34,397 nucleotides of DNA. It comes from a virus (lineage: Duplodnaviria; Heunggongvirae; Uroviricota; Caudoviricetes). The notes beneath the pieces were generated by a model. The model ran no database searches. It was not told the DNA's origin and worked only from the letters and a program-made list of their open reading frames with translations. A program made the position numbers and the translations under genes. Shown here piece by piece: positions 4,458-10,644 of this stretch; positions within the stretch are counted from its first letter, which is position 1; the number at the start of each line of letters is the position of its first letter. Location: IMG/VR virus record IMGVR_UViG_2541047966_000009; one strand, written 5' to 3'.

Positions 4458-5338
4458 ACACTCCTCGTCAGTATTCTGGCGGCCATTGCACTTAATCCCG
4501 GAGACATGCGGTTGAATGCTGTGCCGGCGGCGTTAAGCTGCCCGGAAACGGTATCCAGAGCACCTGCAATATTTCTTTTGTCCACACCACTCAGCGCCGA
4601 CTGCGCCTGCTGTACATACGTGGCTGCCTCACTGGCTGTTCTGGCCAGACTGATGGCATCGGGCATGGATTCAGAGAGTGCATTAAACGCCGGAACACTT
4701 TTCCCCAGAGCTCCGGATATATTACCCAGTCCGCTCATCAGTCCAGGCACACGGGTCAGCGCGACAACGGGGTTACCCTTCATTTTCTGCGCCACCCGAA
4801 CGGCACTGATAGTGGTCTGGAGTACAGACTGCGCCTGTTTCGCATAGTTGACGCCGTTACGGACGAACTGCGCCACCCCGGAAGGCGATGGAACAGCACC
4901 CGATACAGCTCCGGCACCGGGAACCTGCCTGCGTATTGCCGGCGGTTGCAGAGGATTTTTCGGGTCACCGGTGTATTCCCGGAGAGACACGGTGGCACTG
5001 ACAGCCAGCACGTTACCGGTGCTGTCTGTCTGCTCGCTGGTTGCGGTCACATCGGTAATCACGAACCAGCCGCGATAGTCACCGTTGCCGAAGACCAGCG
5101 CCAGTGCCTGATGGGCCTTCATGGCTGTTCGCACTCTCGCCAGCTCCACGTCGGGCACACAATAATGCTGATGGAAGACCAGGCTTATCTGGATTTCGTC
5201 CAGCCTGTCGCCGACAAACTGCAGGCCGGGTTTACCCTCGATGCGGGCATGCTCCGCATAATCGACGCCGAACGTGGCCTCGAAGCCGTCCCAGTAGGTA
5301 ATCAGTTCAAACTCAATATCACCCAGTACGGCAAACAT
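4454..5338 (-). CDS. tail protein following tape measure (P2 gpU / Mu gp43 DNA-circulation N-domain-like)
   Basis: 294-aa ORF directly after tape measure gene with overlapping stop/start; Ala/Ser/Gly-rich C-terminal half. Confidence 0.5.
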   Translation of the reverse strand: MFAVLGDIEFELITYWDGFEATFGVDYAEHARIEGKPGLQFVGDRLDEIQISLVFHQHYCVPDVELARVRTAMKAHQALALVFGNGDYRGWFVITDVTATSEQTDSTGNVLAVSATVSLREYTGDPKNPLQPPAIRRQVPGAGAVSGAVPSPSGVAQFVRNGVNYAKQAQSVLQTTISAVRVAQKMKGNPVVALTRVPGLMSGLGNISGALGKSVPAFNALSESMPDAISLARTASEAATYVQQAQSALSGVDKRNIAGALDTVSGQLNAAGTAFNRMSPGLSAMAARILTRSV

Positions 5339-7803
5339 CAGCTGTACTCCTTACGTTGTTTCTGAGCCAGCAGACGCTCCAGCATTTTTTCCAGCTCATG
5401 CAGGCTCATATTCAGGGCACCAGTCAGCCCGGCAGGCGCTGCGGTTTCCTTACCATTGAGGAAAAACTGAGGATTAAAGCTGACCTGGATACCGCCAGAC
5501 GCTCCACCGCCAGTTGCCGTTGCACCACGGCCTGAATATCCGGCAGCCATGATTTTCGGCGACGGGATACGGGGAACATCCGGTGTCATTTCAGCGGCCA
5601 GGCGCTGCCCGGCCAGTGCAGCAAGCGGAGTGGTCCGTTGCAGGCCAATGGCGGCACCCTGCGCGATATTGTCACCAAAGCCCATAAACACGCGACTCGG
5701 TGAATGGATGCCCAGCTTTTCGCTGAACCAGTCACTGATGCTGTCACCCATTCCGGTTACGCTGGTTTTGAGTGACGCCCATTTGTTTCTGATGCCATTT
5801 ATCAACCCGTCAATAAGATGACCACCGAAGTCGGTGAATTTCGCCGGCAGATCAACGCCGAGATATTTCAGCGCAGCCGCAAAGGCTTTATAAAGCAGAC
5901 CAGCCGGAGACCAGTTAACCAGCAGTTTACCAATTCCCACGATGCCGCCGTTAAAGGCTTCCTGAATGTCAGCCCAGCGCTGTTTAAACCAGCTACTGAC
6001 TGCGCCCCAGTTGCGGTAGATAAGGTAAGCTGCTGCCGCGACGGCGGTGATAACGAGACCGATGGGATTCATCAGCAGCGCCCGGCCAATCCAGAGAACG
6101 GCACGCCCGGCGCTCATAATTCCGCGAACCAGCCCCCCTGAGAGCACACCACCCAGTGTTCTGGCTCCTCTGGCGACAGCACCAAAGCCTGTCACCAGCC
6201 AGCGGAGTTTACCGCCTTCCCCCAGTGCGAGCGTCAGACGAAGCCAGTTGGCCCGAAGTAAAACAGCATTTTTCCAGACGCTTACAAAGGGGGAAAGAAG
6301 GAGATTCAGCCCAAGCTTGAGACCGATAGTGGCCATCCTGAAAGCGAGTAATGCGCCCACAACCTTTATGGTGCTGCTGACGAGCTGCGGATTTGCCGCT
6401 ATCCATTTGCCAACACTGTCCATTAAAGGAATAAATGTTTCACCCAACTGGAGCAAAGCCGGACGCAAGGATTGCCCGATGCTGATAGCAGAATCATTAA
6501 AGCCGATCTGCATTCTGCGCCAGCGACCTTCAAGCGTATCATTCTGCTTTGCAGCATCCTTATCCAGGGTAGAAATTGCAGCCGGAGCATTCATTTCCTG
6601 CTTACTGGAAAGGTATTTATCCCAGCCCTGTCGCATTGACAGTAAATGGTTGACAGTCTGAATATCGGTAAAGACCTCAGCCAGACCAAATGACTCCATG
6701 AGTTTCTGCTGACCTTCCTGATCGCCTCTTGCTCCTGCAGCTTTCCATTGCTGCAAGAACGCTTTGCCTTTACTGTCGATAAAACGGTTGGCAATCATCA
6801 GTGAAGCTTCGTACTGCGAAAAACCCTGAGCGACGTAATTCTGCATTGACCCCTGGTAATCCACCCCGGCTTTAGCATATTTCTGGATGGTATCTCCGCG
6901 GCCCATTGCTGCCAGCCAGTTGGACATATTGGTGACCGCTTCCTCTGCAGAGCCACTACCTTTACCGACCTCCAGACTGGCAACAATCTGGGTAATCGCA
7001 TCTTTTCCATAAATACCACGAGCAGCGAAGGCTTTAGCCATACCGGGTAATGCTTTTGCCATATCCTTCAGCTCAAATGACCCAAGTTTGGCTCCTGTTG
7101 CCGCAATACCAAACGCCTGTTCAAGTTCTTTCGCATCAGTGATTCTGAGTGCATCGCTGAAGGCATAAGTCATTTTGGCAAGGTCGGTCATATCGGCTTT
7201 GGTTGCTGTAGCGGTCTTTCCAAGCATCTCTGCAAACGTTGCTGCCCGTTCGGGGGCCATACCATCAGCAACTAATTGTCCGACTCCCCCTAACAGAGAC
7301 TCCTGCAGTTGGTTAACCTTCAGCGAGGCCTGTCTGATAGCCTGGCCAATTGCACGTTCCTGTTTTGCATCCAGGTCTCCTGTGACACTGATATCCCGCA
7401 ACTGTGATTCAAACGAGGCATATTGTTTAACCGAGGCCATGACCGGTGCGCCCAGCGTTCTGCCAATAGCATAGGTTTCTGCACCCTGACCATAGAGCGC
7501 CAGGCGGTTAGCCTTCAACGCATCACCGGTGGCTGATACTGCTGACAGACGGCGCTGCTGACGTTCAATTTGCTCCATGGTGCGGCTTACCCGCAGCAAC
7601 TCGCTGTTGAGATGCTGCATCCGGGAAGAACCCAGTTGACCATAACGTTCTGTTGCCCGGGTTAAGGCATTCTGGCGTTCCTGCAGACGGCGGGAGGTAT
7701 CACCAAGGGAATCAAGGGCGCGTCGGGTGCCACTGACGGCTGAGCGGAAGCTGCTCCCGACAATGCCGCCAATAATGACGCCGACTGAAAATTCACTGGC
7801 CAC
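5338..7803 (-). CDS. tail tape measure protein
   Basis: 821-aa ORF, largest in tail module; Ala/Gly/Leu-rich with hydrophobic segments; GTG start preceded by GAGGA. Confidence 0.8.
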   Translation of the reverse strand: MASEFSVGVIIGGIVGSSFRSAVSGTRRALDSLGDTSRRLQERQNALTRATERYGQLGSSRMQHLNSELLRVSRTMEQIERQQRRLSAVSATGDALKANRLALYGQGAETYAIGRTLGAPVMASVKQYASFESQLRDISVTGDLDAKQERAIGQAIRQASLKVNQLQESLLGGVGQLVADGMAPERAATFAEMLGKTATATKADMTDLAKMTYAFSDALRITDAKELEQAFGIAATGAKLGSFELKDMAKALPGMAKAFAARGIYGKDAITQIVASLEVGKGSGSAEEAVTNMSNWLAAMGRGDTIQKYAKAGVDYQGSMQNYVAQGFSQYEASLMIANRFIDSKGKAFLQQWKAAGARGDQEGQQKLMESFGLAEVFTDIQTVNHLLSMRQGWDKYLSSKQEMNAPAAISTLDKDAAKQNDTLEGRWRRMQIGFNDSAISIGQSLRPALLQLGETFIPLMDSVGKWIAANPQLVSSTIKVVGALLAFRMATIGLKLGLNLLLSPFVSVWKNAVLLRANWLRLTLALGEGGKLRWLVTGFGAVARGARTLGGVLSGGLVRGIMSAGRAVLWIGRALLMNPIGLVITAVAAAAYLIYRNWGAVSSWFKQRWADIQEAFNGGIVGIGKLLVNWSPAGLLYKAFAAALKYLGVDLPAKFTDFGGHLIDGLINGIRNKWASLKTSVTGMGDSISDWFSEKLGIHSPSRVFMGFGDNIAQGAAIGLQRTTPLAALAGQRLAAEMTPDVPRIPSPKIMAAGYSGRGATATGGGASGGIQVSFNPQFFLNGKETAAPAGLTGALNMSLHELEKMLERLLAQKQRKEYS

Positions 7804-7896
7804 GGTGGCTATCCTCTGAAAGCAAAAAAAACGGAAGGGAAGTGTCTGAAACCCATGCAGAACAGCCGCGACTGGCGGCTGTTAAGTGATACGTTG

Positions 7897-8154
7897 TTAC
7901 TGATTGTCGCCGAACTCGCTTTTGATTTGCTCTTCAGCCTGCTCCAGCCACATCTCCAGATCGTCAGTATCGAGGGCATCAATCTCCCCCGGTTGAAACC
8001 TGAACCATCTCGCCAGCAGGCCCTGCACCTGCATCAGTGTTTTTGTCGCTCTTGCCCAGCCCAGTGATTTTCTGAAATCGTTTCTGCAGCTCCATATAGT
8101 CGGCAAGATCCATGTTATCGAGGTCTTCCGGGAGGATACCGGTGCTACGGGCAA
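7897..8154 (-). CDS. tail assembly chaperone frameshift extension (P2 E'-like); probably made as a fusion with the upstream chaperone
   Basis: Second open frame overlapping the 3' half of the gpE-like gene and running 82 nt past its stop toward the tape measure gene; acidic C-terminus ...DTDDLEMWLEQAEEQIKSEFGDNQ. Confidence 0.5.
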   Translation of the reverse strand: MPVAPVSSRKTSITWILPTIWSCRNDFRKSLGWARATKTLMQVQGLLARWFRFQPGEIDALDTDDLEMWLEQAEEQIKSEFGDNQ

Positions 8155-8320
8155 TCAGTGGTTCGTCCCAGTCTGCCGGGTCTTTGTTGATTTTGCGCAC
8201 CTGCTTCAGGTCTTTTACTGTCAGGCGTTTCAGTTCAATCTGTTCAATTCTGGTACCTGCAGCAGTGGTGAAAGGATAAGACAGCGTAAAAGTATCGGAC
8301 TGGGTCTGTGACATGATCAT
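7979..8320 (-). CDS. tail assembly chaperone, P2 gpE-like
   Basis: 113-aa ORF immediately upstream of tape measure gene; classic chaperone position with overlapping alternative frame. Confidence 0.65.
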   Translation of the reverse strand: MIMSQTQSDTFTLSYPFTTAAGTRIEQIELKRLTVKDLKQVRKINKDPADWDEPLIARSTGILPEDLDNMDLADYMELQKRFQKITGLGKSDKNTDAGAGPAGEMVQVSTGGD

Positions 8321-8389
8321 ACTCCTTTGTAAATTCAGAGCAGTATGTCTGGCGGTGGACGTGACGGATATTAAAGGGGATTAAGAAGA

Positions 8390-8405
8390 AGGGGCCGGAG
8401 CCCCT
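8390..8405 (-). terminator. possible weak intrinsic terminator/attenuator inside the tail operon
   Basis: GC hairpin AGGGGC-cgga-GCCCCT (6-bp stem) followed on minus strand by UCUUCUUAAU; lies between the 93-aa ORF and the chaperone gene. Confidence 0.25.
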
Positions 8406-8411
8406 GTGATG

Positions 8412-8693
8412 TCAGCAAGTGCGAAAACCCTTGCAGTTACGCAGGAAAGCGATGAGAAGCGCCTTTCCCTCAGATTTGCCGGTGCCGGAGAACCACTGGT
8501 CGGGCGGCTCCCATGCTTCAATCAAATCGGCCAGTTTGCGGGCCTTTGAACGTGTGCAGTCAATCGGGTCATTGGTTTTACGGGTATTAAAGAGGGTCTC
8601 CACCCCCGGAATATCAAGGAGGGTAAACCACGTACCATTTGACATGCCCAGTGACGCACATCGCCCTCCTTTGTCAGTCAGTTCAACACTCAC
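8412..8693 (-). CDS. hypothetical protein between tube and chaperone genes
   Basis: 93-aa ORF starting 3 nt after the tube stop, same strand as operon; no recognisable motif; entirely overlapped by a plus-strand ORF so coding status uncertain. Confidence 0.35.
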   Translation of the reverse strand: MSVELTDKGGRCASLGMSNGTWFTLLDIPGVETLFNTRKTNDPIDCTRSKARKLADLIEAWEPPDQWFSGTGKSEGKALLIAFLRNCKGFRTC

Positions 8694-8695
8694 CG

Positions 8696-9217
8696 TCAGC
8701 CCCCGATATTGATTCGATAGTCAGTCAGTTGATCAACGCCACCGACGCGGAAGATGTTGGCCAGATAGTCCAGTTGCAGCAACTCTTCACCATCCAGTAC
8801 CTGTCTGATATACGTGCAGGTGAAGCTACTGGAGAACTCGGCGTTCTCGTGCTGTTTGAACGTCCCCAGCGGGTTCTTCTTGAACATAATTGTCAGGAAG
8901 GTGACCAGCGGGATTTCGTCGATCAGCCCCTGCGAGCTGTAGCGCTGGACGCTGGAGCGACACTGCAGCGCCAGCGACTTGTACGGGTTCGCGGCAGACA
9001 ACATCGCATCGCGGTAAAAGCTGTTCCATTTGATTTCGCCTTCCAGTTTGTCAAAACCAGCCGGGAGTTCCACCTTACCCACCATCCCCAGTGCCTTGTG
9101 CTCCTGCATAATCATGGAGACATCGGGGAGTTTAACTTCCTCAGCCCGTCCCAGCAGGTTAGTACCATCCAGATAGATGTTGGCATTCGTGATTCGGTTT
9201 ATCTCAATCTTTGACAT
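8696..9217 (-). CDS. tail tube protein, P2 FII / Mu M-like
   Basis: 173-aa ORF directly after sheath gene; C-terminus ...FRVGGVDQLTDYRINIGG resembles FII-family tube proteins. Confidence 0.75.
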   Translation of the reverse strand: MSKIEINRITNANIYLDGTNLLGRAEEVKLPDVSMIMQEHKALGMVGKVELPAGFDKLEGEIKWNSFYRDAMLSAANPYKSLALQCRSSVQRYSSQGLIDEIPLVTFLTIMFKKNPLGTFKQHENAEFSSSFTCTYIRQVLDGEELLQLDYLANIFRVGGVDQLTDYRINIGG

Positions 9218-10644
9218 CAGTTGCCCCCTTTCAGGGTTAACAGGTATTCCGAGGTGATTTCAGTCTCAAACGTCAGTCGCTCCAGCGGCGGTGGTGGCGT
9301 ATATTTGTAGCTCAGCAACAGGTGCCCGGCGGCCAGCTCCGTCTCCGGATTGCGGGCCGGATCAAACCAGCAACGGAAGCCCAGTACCGCACCATCACCA
9401 GTCATTTTGCGACCGTAGGCGTTGACCGACTCCGTCAGTGCATCAATCAGCGCCTGAGTAATCGGCATGTCGATGTACTGCTGGCTGAAGTAACGAATGG
9501 ACTCGTTGATCACATCACCGGTGCGGCGAACGTTCTCAAAGTTACGCATATGGGTGACCGTTGGCCATGCTGCCGTCCGGTTACCCCACAGACGAAGGCC
9601 GCTGCCGTAACTGCTGAATACCGTGGTGATCCCCTGTTCGTTAAGCAGGTTCACCTCGCTCTGCGGATCGTCAATCATTGCCGACAGCTGGCGCTCCACG
9701 CCGGTGATCCCCAGAATTTCCTGATTGGAGGATGACCACCAGTACCCTTTGTCCAGGTCGACTTTGGCACGCAGGCCCGCCGCACGCTGGCTCAGTGGCT
9801 CCAGACGCTCCGTGTTCGTCACCGGGTCATATACCTTCACATGCGGGTAGCACAGGCGGACACGGTCAGAGCTGGTATTAAAGTTAATGGTGCCTTCCGG
9901 GCCACGTCCCGCCAGAGCCTGCGCAAAAGTGGTACCAACCGGCGCATCAATATAGGTTACTGCTCCCAGTTTCTCAGCCATGGCGATAAGCTCAACCGAG
10001 ACGCTGTTCTGGGTGCAGAATACCGGAGCAATCAGGATTTTGGCGAAGTAGCCAAACAGGTTAAAACTGTCGTTAAGCAGCTTCATGCCGGTACGGTTGC
10101 CTGCAGCGTTAACGGTACCGATGATATCAGCCGGGGTGACTTTGGTCGGATCAGCATAGTTATAGCTGGCCTTCACCGTTGCATCTGCAGCAATGCTTTT
10201 ACCCAGGTTAGTAATCACCCCGGTCTGTGCATCAAGCGAGTAGTCCTGACCTTCAACATAAGGCTGACCGTCGCTGTCCGGTTTCAGTACCAGCTGCGCG
10301 ACCACCGGATTAGCCAGCCGGGCTCTGCCTGTCGCCTTGTCGAACGACACATTCTCACTGACCACAGCGGTTTTATGCACAGACGGATCGAGTACGTTAA
10401 TGACCAGAACGGTGCCTGCACCATGGTCATAAATCGCATCCAGCGCCTGCGGAATGGTAAAGCCGGTGAACTGGCTGCCAAATGCCGCAGCGTCTTTCTC
10501 AGACAGGCACTGTACCAGCGTATTGACATCCCCCATCGGGGCGGTACCAATCAGGCCAATAACGGCAGATTTCACCGTTTTAACCGGGCGGGCTCCGTTT
10601 TCCACCTCAATGGTTTCGACGCCATGCAGATAGTTAGCTGCCAT
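9217..10644 (-). CDS. contractile tail sheath protein, P2 FI / Mu L-like
   Basis: 475-aa ORF; N-terminus MAANYLHGVETIEVENGARPVKTVKSAVIGLIGTAP matches the sheath N-terminal pattern (HGV..EV..G.R.I..S.A.IG..TA). Confidence 0.8.
   Translation of the reverse strand: MAANYLHGVETIEVENGARPVKTVKSAVIGLIGTAPMGDVNTLVQCLSEKDAAAFGSQFTGFTIPQALDAIYDHGAGTVLVINVLDPSVHKTAVVSENVSFDKATGRARLANPVVAQLVLKPDSDGQPYVEGQDYSLDAQTGVITNLGKSIAADATVKASYNYADPTKVTPADIIGTVNAAGNRTGMKLLNDSFNLFGYFAKILIAPVFCTQNSVSVELIAMAEKLGAVTYIDAPVGTTFAQALAGRGPEGTINFNTSSDRVRLCYPHVKVYDPVTNTERLEPLSQRAAGLRAKVDLDKGYWWSSSNQEILGITGVERQLSAMIDDPQSEVNLLNEQGITTVFSSYGSGLRLWGNRTAAWPTVTHMRNFENVRRTGDVINESIRYFSQQYIDMPITQALIDALTESVNAYGRKMTGDGAVLGFRCWFDPARNPETELAAGHLLLSYKYTPPPPLERLTFETEITSEYLLTLKGGN

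Follow-up and report, generated by a model that had tools for sequence, protein, structure and literature searches.

The question raised by the locus described here was how a second open frame, which overlapped a tail assembly chaperone gene and continued past its stop, would be reached by the ribosome when it lay in the +1 (or -2) register rather than the canonical -1. The locus was found on the minus strand, at positions 8320..7897 of a 34,397-nucleotide (nt) stretch of viral DNA (Caudoviricetes; IMG/VR record IMGVR_UViG_2541047966_000009), and this whole stretch is called the window below. The initial annotation had read the two frames as a phage chaperone frameshift. This reading was borne out: the first product belonged to the chaperone family PF10109, and the extension was conserved, was under purifying selection in the +1/-2 frame and was, at the family level, a homologue of the E' extension of phage P2. 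Based on all comparisons, we consider it quite probable that the locus is the E/E+E' chaperone pair of a BcepMu-like prophage, the fusion being made through a +1 slip on a UUU_C sequence.

The chaperone gene and the overlapping +1 frame

The open reading frame (ORF) of the gpE-like chaperone, taken as frame 0, spanned 8320..7979 on the minus strand. Translation could begin at ATG 8320 (113 amino acids, aa) or, more likely, at ATG 8314, which lay behind an AGGAG (111 aa). The coding sequence (CDS) called by the Prokaryotic Genome Annotation Pipeline (PGAP) in Escherichia coli MS20655 corresponded to 8314..7979, i.e. it started at ATG 8314 and stopped at TGA 7981..7979. Residues 10-84 matched Pfam PF10109 (Phage_TAC_7; E = 1.5e-22, 79.8 bits against a cut-off of 25), a family titled 'Phage tail assembly chaperone proteins, E, or 41 or 14' (Pfam). 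Because of this match and the place of the gene between the tail tube and tape measure genes, its product was identified by sequence as a tail assembly chaperone.

The three minus-strand frames were recomputed. The codon starts of the chaperone were congruent to 1 mod 3 and those of the second frame to 0 mod 3. The latter opened at 8154 (after TGA 8157..8155), upstream of the candidate shift site discussed below, and ran to TAA 7899..7897, thus sharing 173 nt with the chaperone ORF and reaching 82 nt beyond its stop. Since a 0 mod 3 start lies one base downstream of a 1 mod 3 start on the minus strand, the second frame was +1 (equivalently -2). Both the coordinates given by the initial annotation and its arithmetic, which had placed the second frame in +1 and not in -1, therefore stood. 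Its remark that no XXXYYYZ heptamer was evident agreed with our reading by eye (no pattern scan was made), in which no classic X_XXY_YYZ heptamer of the lambda G/GT paradigm was in phase in the overlap; nor was the conserved extension in the -1 frame.

Homologous chaperones were collected at 188 loci from IMG/VR, GTDB genomes and GenBank phages, and the E'-like domain was located in them with a hidden Markov model (HMM) built from seven extension peptides. The domain was found in the +1 frame in 177 of the 188 loci, and in every one of these it shared its open frame with the TTC of the candidate site. It was found in the -1 frame in three loci (a Vibrio phage, a Pasteurella phage and a Volucribacter prophage) and in frame 0 in four, namely L083 and L105, which carried 1-nt deletions, L087, a decayed copy, and L190, a weak match. 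The hosts of the +1-type loci were Enterobacterales, Burkholderiales and Pseudomonas, with uncultured viral contigs in addition, and the clade was also met in Salmonella, Burkholderia, Pseudomonas and Ralstonia. Because an E'-like domain was conserved in the +1 frame in 177 of 188 loci, the overlap of the two frames, judged by sequence, far exceeds chance. The chaperone of L190, a distant relative, ended in CAT TTT TTA GCC TGA (about 1110-1135), a P2-like T6 run that suggests the -1 type; the extension HMM gave no convincing E' domain in this locus.

In the window, the +1-frame extension after the proposed shift, the analogue of E', occupied 7897..8076 on the minus strand with its stop at TAA 7899..7897, and its translation was F-RKSLGWARATKTLMQVQGLLARWFRFQPGEIDALDTDDLEMWLEQAEEQIKSEFGDNQ. 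The core of the extension (7918..8019, minus; LLARWFRFQPGEIDALDTDDLEMWLEQAEEQIKS) corresponded to the P2 GpE (E')-like domain, PF06528, at the family level: among 29 diverse +1 extensions, 17 matched PF06528 (Phage P2 GpE) at E <= 0.01, the best with E = 8.3e-8, and the peptide of the window itself matched weakly, below the cut-off, with E = 0.0084. The close homologue in a second E. coli genome was named 'GpE family phage tail protein' by PGAP. Neither the fusion nor the extension had a match in NCBIfam, and no solved structure was found for the extension.

The selection on each frame was measured in 46 unique close relatives. In the chaperone domain (to 8077) the entropy at frame-0 codon positions 1, 2 and 3 was 0.34, 0.24 and 0.92, respectively; in 8068..8024 it became 0.70, 0.26 and 0.44, and in 8023..8003 it was 0.39, 0.02 and 0.02. 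From 8068 on, the highest entropy hence fell on frame-0 position 1, where the +1 frame has its wobble base. The synonymous fraction, counted over single-change codon differences, changed in the same manner. In the chaperone domain it was 0.81 in frame 0, 0.12 in +1 and 0.08 in -1; the corresponding values were 0.30, 0.56 and 0.12 in 8073..8024, 0.03, 0.97 and 0.06 in 8023..7982, and 0.20, 0.52 and 0.13 beyond the chaperone stop (7981..7900). From the switch in both measures it was concluded that the +1 frame is the frame under selection, starting directly after CGA TTT CAG (8080..8072). The +1 peptide was also conserved from just past the Phe in lineages of very different DNA, a Trp following at a distance of 2-6 residues and a Leu at about 12.

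A base change in two loci (L055) concerned the frame-0 tail. At the position aligned to about 8048 of the window, CAG was replaced by TAG, which ended frame 0 at ...GMGESN, 13 codons past the TTT, and left the +1 frame intact. This change is consistent with a frame-0 tail that would be dispensable past the shift site.

The conserved UUU_C and the proposed slip

The initial annotation had proposed a search for +1 shifty sites, and a conserved candidate, UUU_C, was found at 8077..8074. The proposed site (8074..8077, minus), which consists of TTT 8077..8075 followed by C 8074, was indicated by its conservation and by the frame switch, and its context, CGA TTT CAG (8080..8072), lay at the C-terminal edge of the PF10109 domain. 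The eight bases CGATTTCA, two synonymous positions among them, did not vary in the 46 close relatives, whose alignment showed variation at 67 of 71 third positions.

Across the clade the chaperone proteins were aligned and the codon was read at the Phe that ends the PF10109 domain. This codon was TTT in all 177 of the +1-type loci, and the next base was C in 176 of them and T in one. When only distinct 21-nt contexts were counted, TTT was present in 60 of 60, with C as the next base in 59 and T in one, and GC-rich hosts were included among these contexts. The surroundings were not fixed in this way: 13 kinds of codon preceded TTT (CGA, TCC, GTG, GCC, ACC, ACG, TCT, GCG, GCA, CGG, TGG, TTT and AAA), and the residue after the Phe was Gln, Arg, Leu or His, or Tyr in the single TTT_T case. 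As a control, two other conserved Phe columns of the chaperone gene were examined; they used TTC in 33 of 49 and in 8 of 26 contexts, and pooled Phe usage in GC-rich loci was about 25% TTT.

The interval available for a shift was narrow. The +1 frame opened as few as 3 codons before the TTT, and frame 0 ended as few as 7 codons after it (7-8 codons past the TTT in several independent lineages), so the common interval ran from -3 to +7. In loci such as L154 and L155 both limits occurred together and left 31 nt, in which TTT_C was the sole place for re-pairing. By these comparisons the shift site is probably UUU_C rather than an A5 or a G5 run.

UUU_Ynn sequences are especially prone to +1 frameshifting in bacteria, and a stop codon is not needed (PMC5009743). 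An in-frame UUU followed by a pyrimidine, kept at synonymous positions, was what was found in the 177 loci. Many Burkholderia-type relatives (L148-L160, L174-L181 and other IMG/VR loci) read TCC TTT CGC at the aligned Phe. The +1 cassette of influenza A PA-X is UCC_UUU_CGU (PMC5009743), which is identical to that sequence save for the last base.

We proposed that the majority of ribosomes would stay in frame 0 and produce the 111-aa chaperone, while a minority would pause with tRNA-Phe on UUU (8077..8075). The tRNA would then slip by +1, from UUU (8077..8075) to UUC (8076..8074), after which reading would resume at AGA (8073..8071) and end at TAA 7899..7897. A -2 slip from the same codon was ruled out, because it lands on GAU and offers no re-pairing. 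The predicted fusion, join(8314..8075, 8073..7897), would be 138 aa long (MSQTQ...ELQKRF-RKSLGWARATKTLMQVQGLLARWFRFQPGEIDALDTDDLEMWLEQAEEQIKSEFGDNQ) and would consist of the chaperone domain through the Phe and a 58-residue E'-like tail. The ribosomal nature of the shift, its placement as +1 on UUU_C, its efficiency and the roles of the two products were all inferred. By analogy with lambda G/GT (PMC5009743), the tape measure protein is the expected partner bound by the chaperone and the tube protein that bound by the extension; the shared N-terminal domain would coat the former, the extension would recruit the latter, and neither the chaperone nor the fusion would be present in the virion. 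The efficiency of fusion may be low. This would fit the few percent typical of these chaperones, the value for Mu being 2.2% (PMC3498833), and is not counted as evidence.

Several points weigh against a +1 slip at this site. The compared sequences share kinship, so that the counts given above overstate the number of independent events, and the site was placed by comparison, which presumes a homologous position across the clade. The 138-aa fusion is a predicted product, read from the sequence. An excess of 30% frame-0 synonymous changes persisted in 8073..8024, and a slightly more downstream site in the lineage of the window is therefore possible. No stimulator was evident either: the 98 nt downstream (8072..7975) folded no better than shuffled sequences (z = +1.08), no Rfam match was obtained in 7700..8500, and no Shine-Dalgarno-like sequence was conserved upstream across the site contexts. 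The frame-0 A-site codon was CAG, CAA, CGC, CGG or CTG across the loci. In E. coli the CAG of the window is not slow, while AGA, the A-site codon of the +1 frame, is rare, and this is the opposite of a setting that favours a forward shift.

Alternative sites and readings

Two kinds of homopolymer run offered other sites in the same overlap. The G5 run in ACC GGG GGA GAT TGA (7986..7990, minus), just before the frame-0 stop, resembles the -2 site of Mu, and a Mu-like -2 (or +1) shift on ACC GGG GGA would give ...VSTGG-EIDALDTDD.... The verified -2 site of Mu is also a G5 run (CGG GGG CGA), lies near the end of gp41 and serves the same relative frame, and the sequence of the window allows GGA to pair again with GGG after a step of two bases back, or GGG to do so after a step of one base forward. 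However, in many close relatives GTT TAG closes frame 0 at a point 5 codons before the run, which frame-0 ribosomes therefore never reach, and the run was absent from Salmonella, Brenneria, Burkholderia and Pseudomonas relatives that keep the +1 extension. The +1 frame was already 97% synonymous upstream of the run, and the peptide LLARWFRF encoded there was kept via synonymous changes (e.g. AGG to CGC for Arg); a product joined at the run would omit it. The G5 run is probably not the shift site, and a shift there was considered very unlikely. The initial annotation had instead pointed to the five A's of GAC AAA AAC (8044..8040); this A5 run (8040..8044, minus), together with GCA GGG C/G (8023..8020), would allow a +1 or -2 shift elsewhere in the overlap. 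AAA can re-pair one base forward on AAA, GGG_G was found in most close relatives, and the 'fusion' proteins present in databases join at exactly these runs. Yet the A5 run was not conserved even in relatives of about 90% identity, being replaced by AAC CAG GGC, GAC GAA AAC and others in those that are about 88-90% identical (DNA, this region), and it was rejected as a programmed site. The window has GGG_C and not GGG_G, and the run was missing from the Salmonella relative. Moreover, the +1 frame was already selected upstream of both runs, in distant relatives frame 0 has closed well ahead of the corresponding positions, and the database fusions resemble 1-nt homopolymer indels in assemblies. 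A shift at either of these runs was therefore regarded as unlikely.

It could also be supposed that no frameshift takes place and that the extension ORF is translated alone as a small 'GpE family' protein, much as PGAP calls a 46-aa CDS from the Met of ...TLMQAQG... in E. coli strain 1435, and as the records give phiE255 gp16, Komp CDS0016 and Valp1_47 each as a small CDS of its own. The candidate Met was not conserved, however, and M, I, T, W, R, L or others stood in its place in relatives, while the coding-type conservation of the +1 frame began at TTT_C, upstream of every candidate start. Independent initiation would also leave the invariant TTT_C unexplained, and the homologous E' of P2 is made only as an E+E' fusion according to its record annotation, so that a separate protein appeared improbable. 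The third frame, on which the initial annotation had made no remark and which would be entered by a canonical -1 shift, was open at 7809..8033 (minus; 8033..7809 in reading direction), i.e. for 75 codons across the chaperone stop, and ended next to the tape measure start; G_GGA would permit a single-tRNA -1 slip into it. Its peptide (...RLMPSILTIWRCGW...) was rich in Cys, Trp, Arg and Ser and had no Pfam match, the frame extended 5 to 206 nt beyond the stop in most close relatives (1220 nt in a single outlier), the synonymous share of its single-change codon differences was only 6-13%, and no in-phase X_XXY_YYZ heptamer was seen by eye. This open stretch was taken as a chance ORF, and the likelihood of a -1 shift into it was judged close to nil.

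Related systems, the prophage and its annotation

The +1 slip on UUU_C was compared with the chaperone shifts known from other phages. The E/E+E' pair of P2 (NC_001895) shares the PF10109 chaperone and, at the family level, the PF06528 extension, for which the peptide of the window scored 16 bits against a cut-off of 23, and it occupies the same place between the tube (FII) and tape measure (T) genes. The verified -1 site of P2, GGT TTT TTG (T_TTT_TTG), is likewise at a Phe and at the same edge of PF10109, within about 3 profile positions, and the fusion lengths are close (138 aa here, 142 aa in P2). P2, however, slips by -1 on a U6 run, whereas the extension of the window lies in the +1 frame behind a conserved UUU_C (CGA TTT CAG) and has no U6; the frame-0 tail after the site is 31 codons long here and 7 in P2.

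Mu gp41 is also the tail assembly chaperone of a transposable myovirus. Its -2 frameshift was verified (Xu, Hendrix and Duda 2004, as cited in AF083977 and PMC3498833), its extension lies in the same +1/-2 relative frame, and the recoding is of a low level and takes place between the tube and tape measure genes, as is proposed here. Nevertheless, gp41 belongs to the family PF23746 (Gp41_Mu; 8.1e-34) and its match to PF10109 is weak and sub-threshold (23.8 bits), while the window protein matched PF10109 only, and no sequence kinship of the Mu extension to the E' domain was seen by eye. Mu shifts by -2 on the G5 run CGG_GGG_CGA close to the stop, and the G5 run of the window is not the conserved site.

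The novelty that the initial annotation had implied for a register other than -1 did not hold, because Mu shifts by -2, and forward shifts have been annotated for the chaperones of actinophages in hundreds of cases. Different tailed phages use -1, -2 or +1 chaperone shifts, and the archaeal myovirus HSTV-2 probably uses +1 (PMC5009743); in the SEA-PHAGES genomes, 350 forward and 2368 backward chaperone frameshifts have been annotated (PMC10885494). The other forward-shift chaperones belong to other protein families and hosts, and their sites are mostly guesses of the annotators. Compared with other forward or UUU_Y shifts, no rare A-site codon, stop codon or Shine-Dalgarno-like stimulator was evident here. 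In agreement with the lambda G/GT paradigm, the second ORF had no conserved start of its own and was conserved as an extension of the first.

BcepMu (AY539836) belongs to the same phage group as the window, its gp41 being the homologous chaperone and gp42 the homologous +1-frame ORF. Its record describes gp42 as the analogue of lambda G and gp43 as a slippage-derived analogue of T, i.e. it places the shift between gp42 and gp43 and not between gp41 and gp42. The window leaves no room for a gp43, as its extension stop and its tape measure start are only 94 nt apart. At the BcepMu locus (L090 and L195; AY539836, NC_005882; locus positions 1201-1962) the comparison would make gp41 and gp42 the E/E' pair, joined via TTT_C. 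The records of phiE255 and vB_E274 show a minus-strand gene in the 'gp43' region.

The region was found with 100% identity in a prophage of E. coli MS20655, and it was matched at >=80% identity in 642 of 5426 complete E. coli genomes (~12%). The nearest phage records were PhiKM (classified in Bcepmuvirus), KP12 and Phi06_2974 B. In the MS20655 annotation a Mu-like early region (transposase-type integrase, Gam and Mor) was combined with a P2-like tail, and on these sequence grounds the window was classed as a transposable, BcepMu-like E. coli prophage. It appeared to be approximately complete, with a DDE transposase-type gene, an ExeA/MuB-like gene, Gam, Mor, Mu-like head genes and the P2-like tail. 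In the MS20655 region (L193; 1072500-1109700) the neighbouring torS was annotated as frameshifted, and the gene of a 4Fe-4S protein at the opposite end was truncated.

The tail genes of the window lay on the minus strand in the order tube (9217..8696), chaperone (8314..7979), overlapping ORF (8154..7897) and tape measure (7803..5338), which is the layout of a chaperone frameshift. The sheath gene (10644..9217) matched Pfam Phage_sheath_1, the FII-like tube gene matched PF04985 (Phage_tube, E = 2.1e-53), and the tape measure gene matched PF10145 (PhageMin_Tail) and was called 'phage tail tape measure protein' by PGAP. A small ORF of 93 aa (8693..8412, minus) stood between the tube and chaperone genes; it had a sub-threshold Pfam match to DUF7739 (25.8 bits against a cut-off of 27), was listed as a 'hypothetical protein' at the equivalent place in PhiKM, KP12 and E. 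coli genomes, and was not present in P2. Between this ORF and the chaperone start, within a presumed single late tail operon, a terminator-like hairpin was seen at 8390-8405 (minus), AGGGGC-TCCG-GCCCCT followed by TCTTCTTAAT. A further GC-rich inverted repeat of 9 bp, AACAGCCGC-cagtc-GCGGCTGTT, was located at 7861-7883 (minus), immediately 3' of the extension stop; next came a T8 run (about 7824..7831), still upstream of the tape measure start (7803), and the terminator scan made no call there.

The two ORFs were left unjoined by PGAP in two E. coli genomes and in the records of KP12, PhiKM, phiE255, vB_E274, Komp_PAO1_1 and Bise, in which the extension was either unannotated or a separate small gene. 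When 5.8 billion proteins were searched with the predicted fusion, no KRF-RKSLGW junction was found; the search gave only 138-aa 'fusions' joined at homopolymer runs, which looked like 1-nt indels in assemblies (P0001-P0010). Among the in-frame cases, L105 lacked one base about 15 nt upstream of the TTT (about 1110-1125), a base was missing in the G-run in L083 (about 1500-1540), P0003 and P0004, and one in the A5 run in P0001. P0002 came from a complete NCBI E. coli genome (ECZU08). Such in-frame fusions could be sequencing errors or real constitutive-fusion mutants. No description of a +1 shift for this phage group was found in the literature searched, whose coverage did not extend to Summer et al. 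2004 and Xu et al. 2004.

Since +1 chaperone frameshifts and UUU_Y slippage were already known, this clade is a further well-supported case of the rarer, forward form. With somewhat less confidence than for the window itself, it seems likely that the whole clade of BcepMu-like and related phages and prophages with P2-type tails makes E+E' by a stimulator-free +1 slip on an invariant UUU_C, near the Phe codon at which P2 slips by -1, and that the direction of the shift was switched in evolution while the product was kept. The site proposed is specific and testable. A very common prophage group would then lack an essential tail protein in its annotation, and the BcepMu reference record puts the slippage elsewhere. 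A correction of the annotation is likely, and the fusion would be recovered by searching for TTT_C where the conserved Phe closes the PF10109 domain. The clade would also serve as a comparative example of a minimal +1 site with no obvious stimulator and, if the proposal is true, P2 and this clade are homologous chaperones that reach the same fusion by opposite slips at about the same codon.

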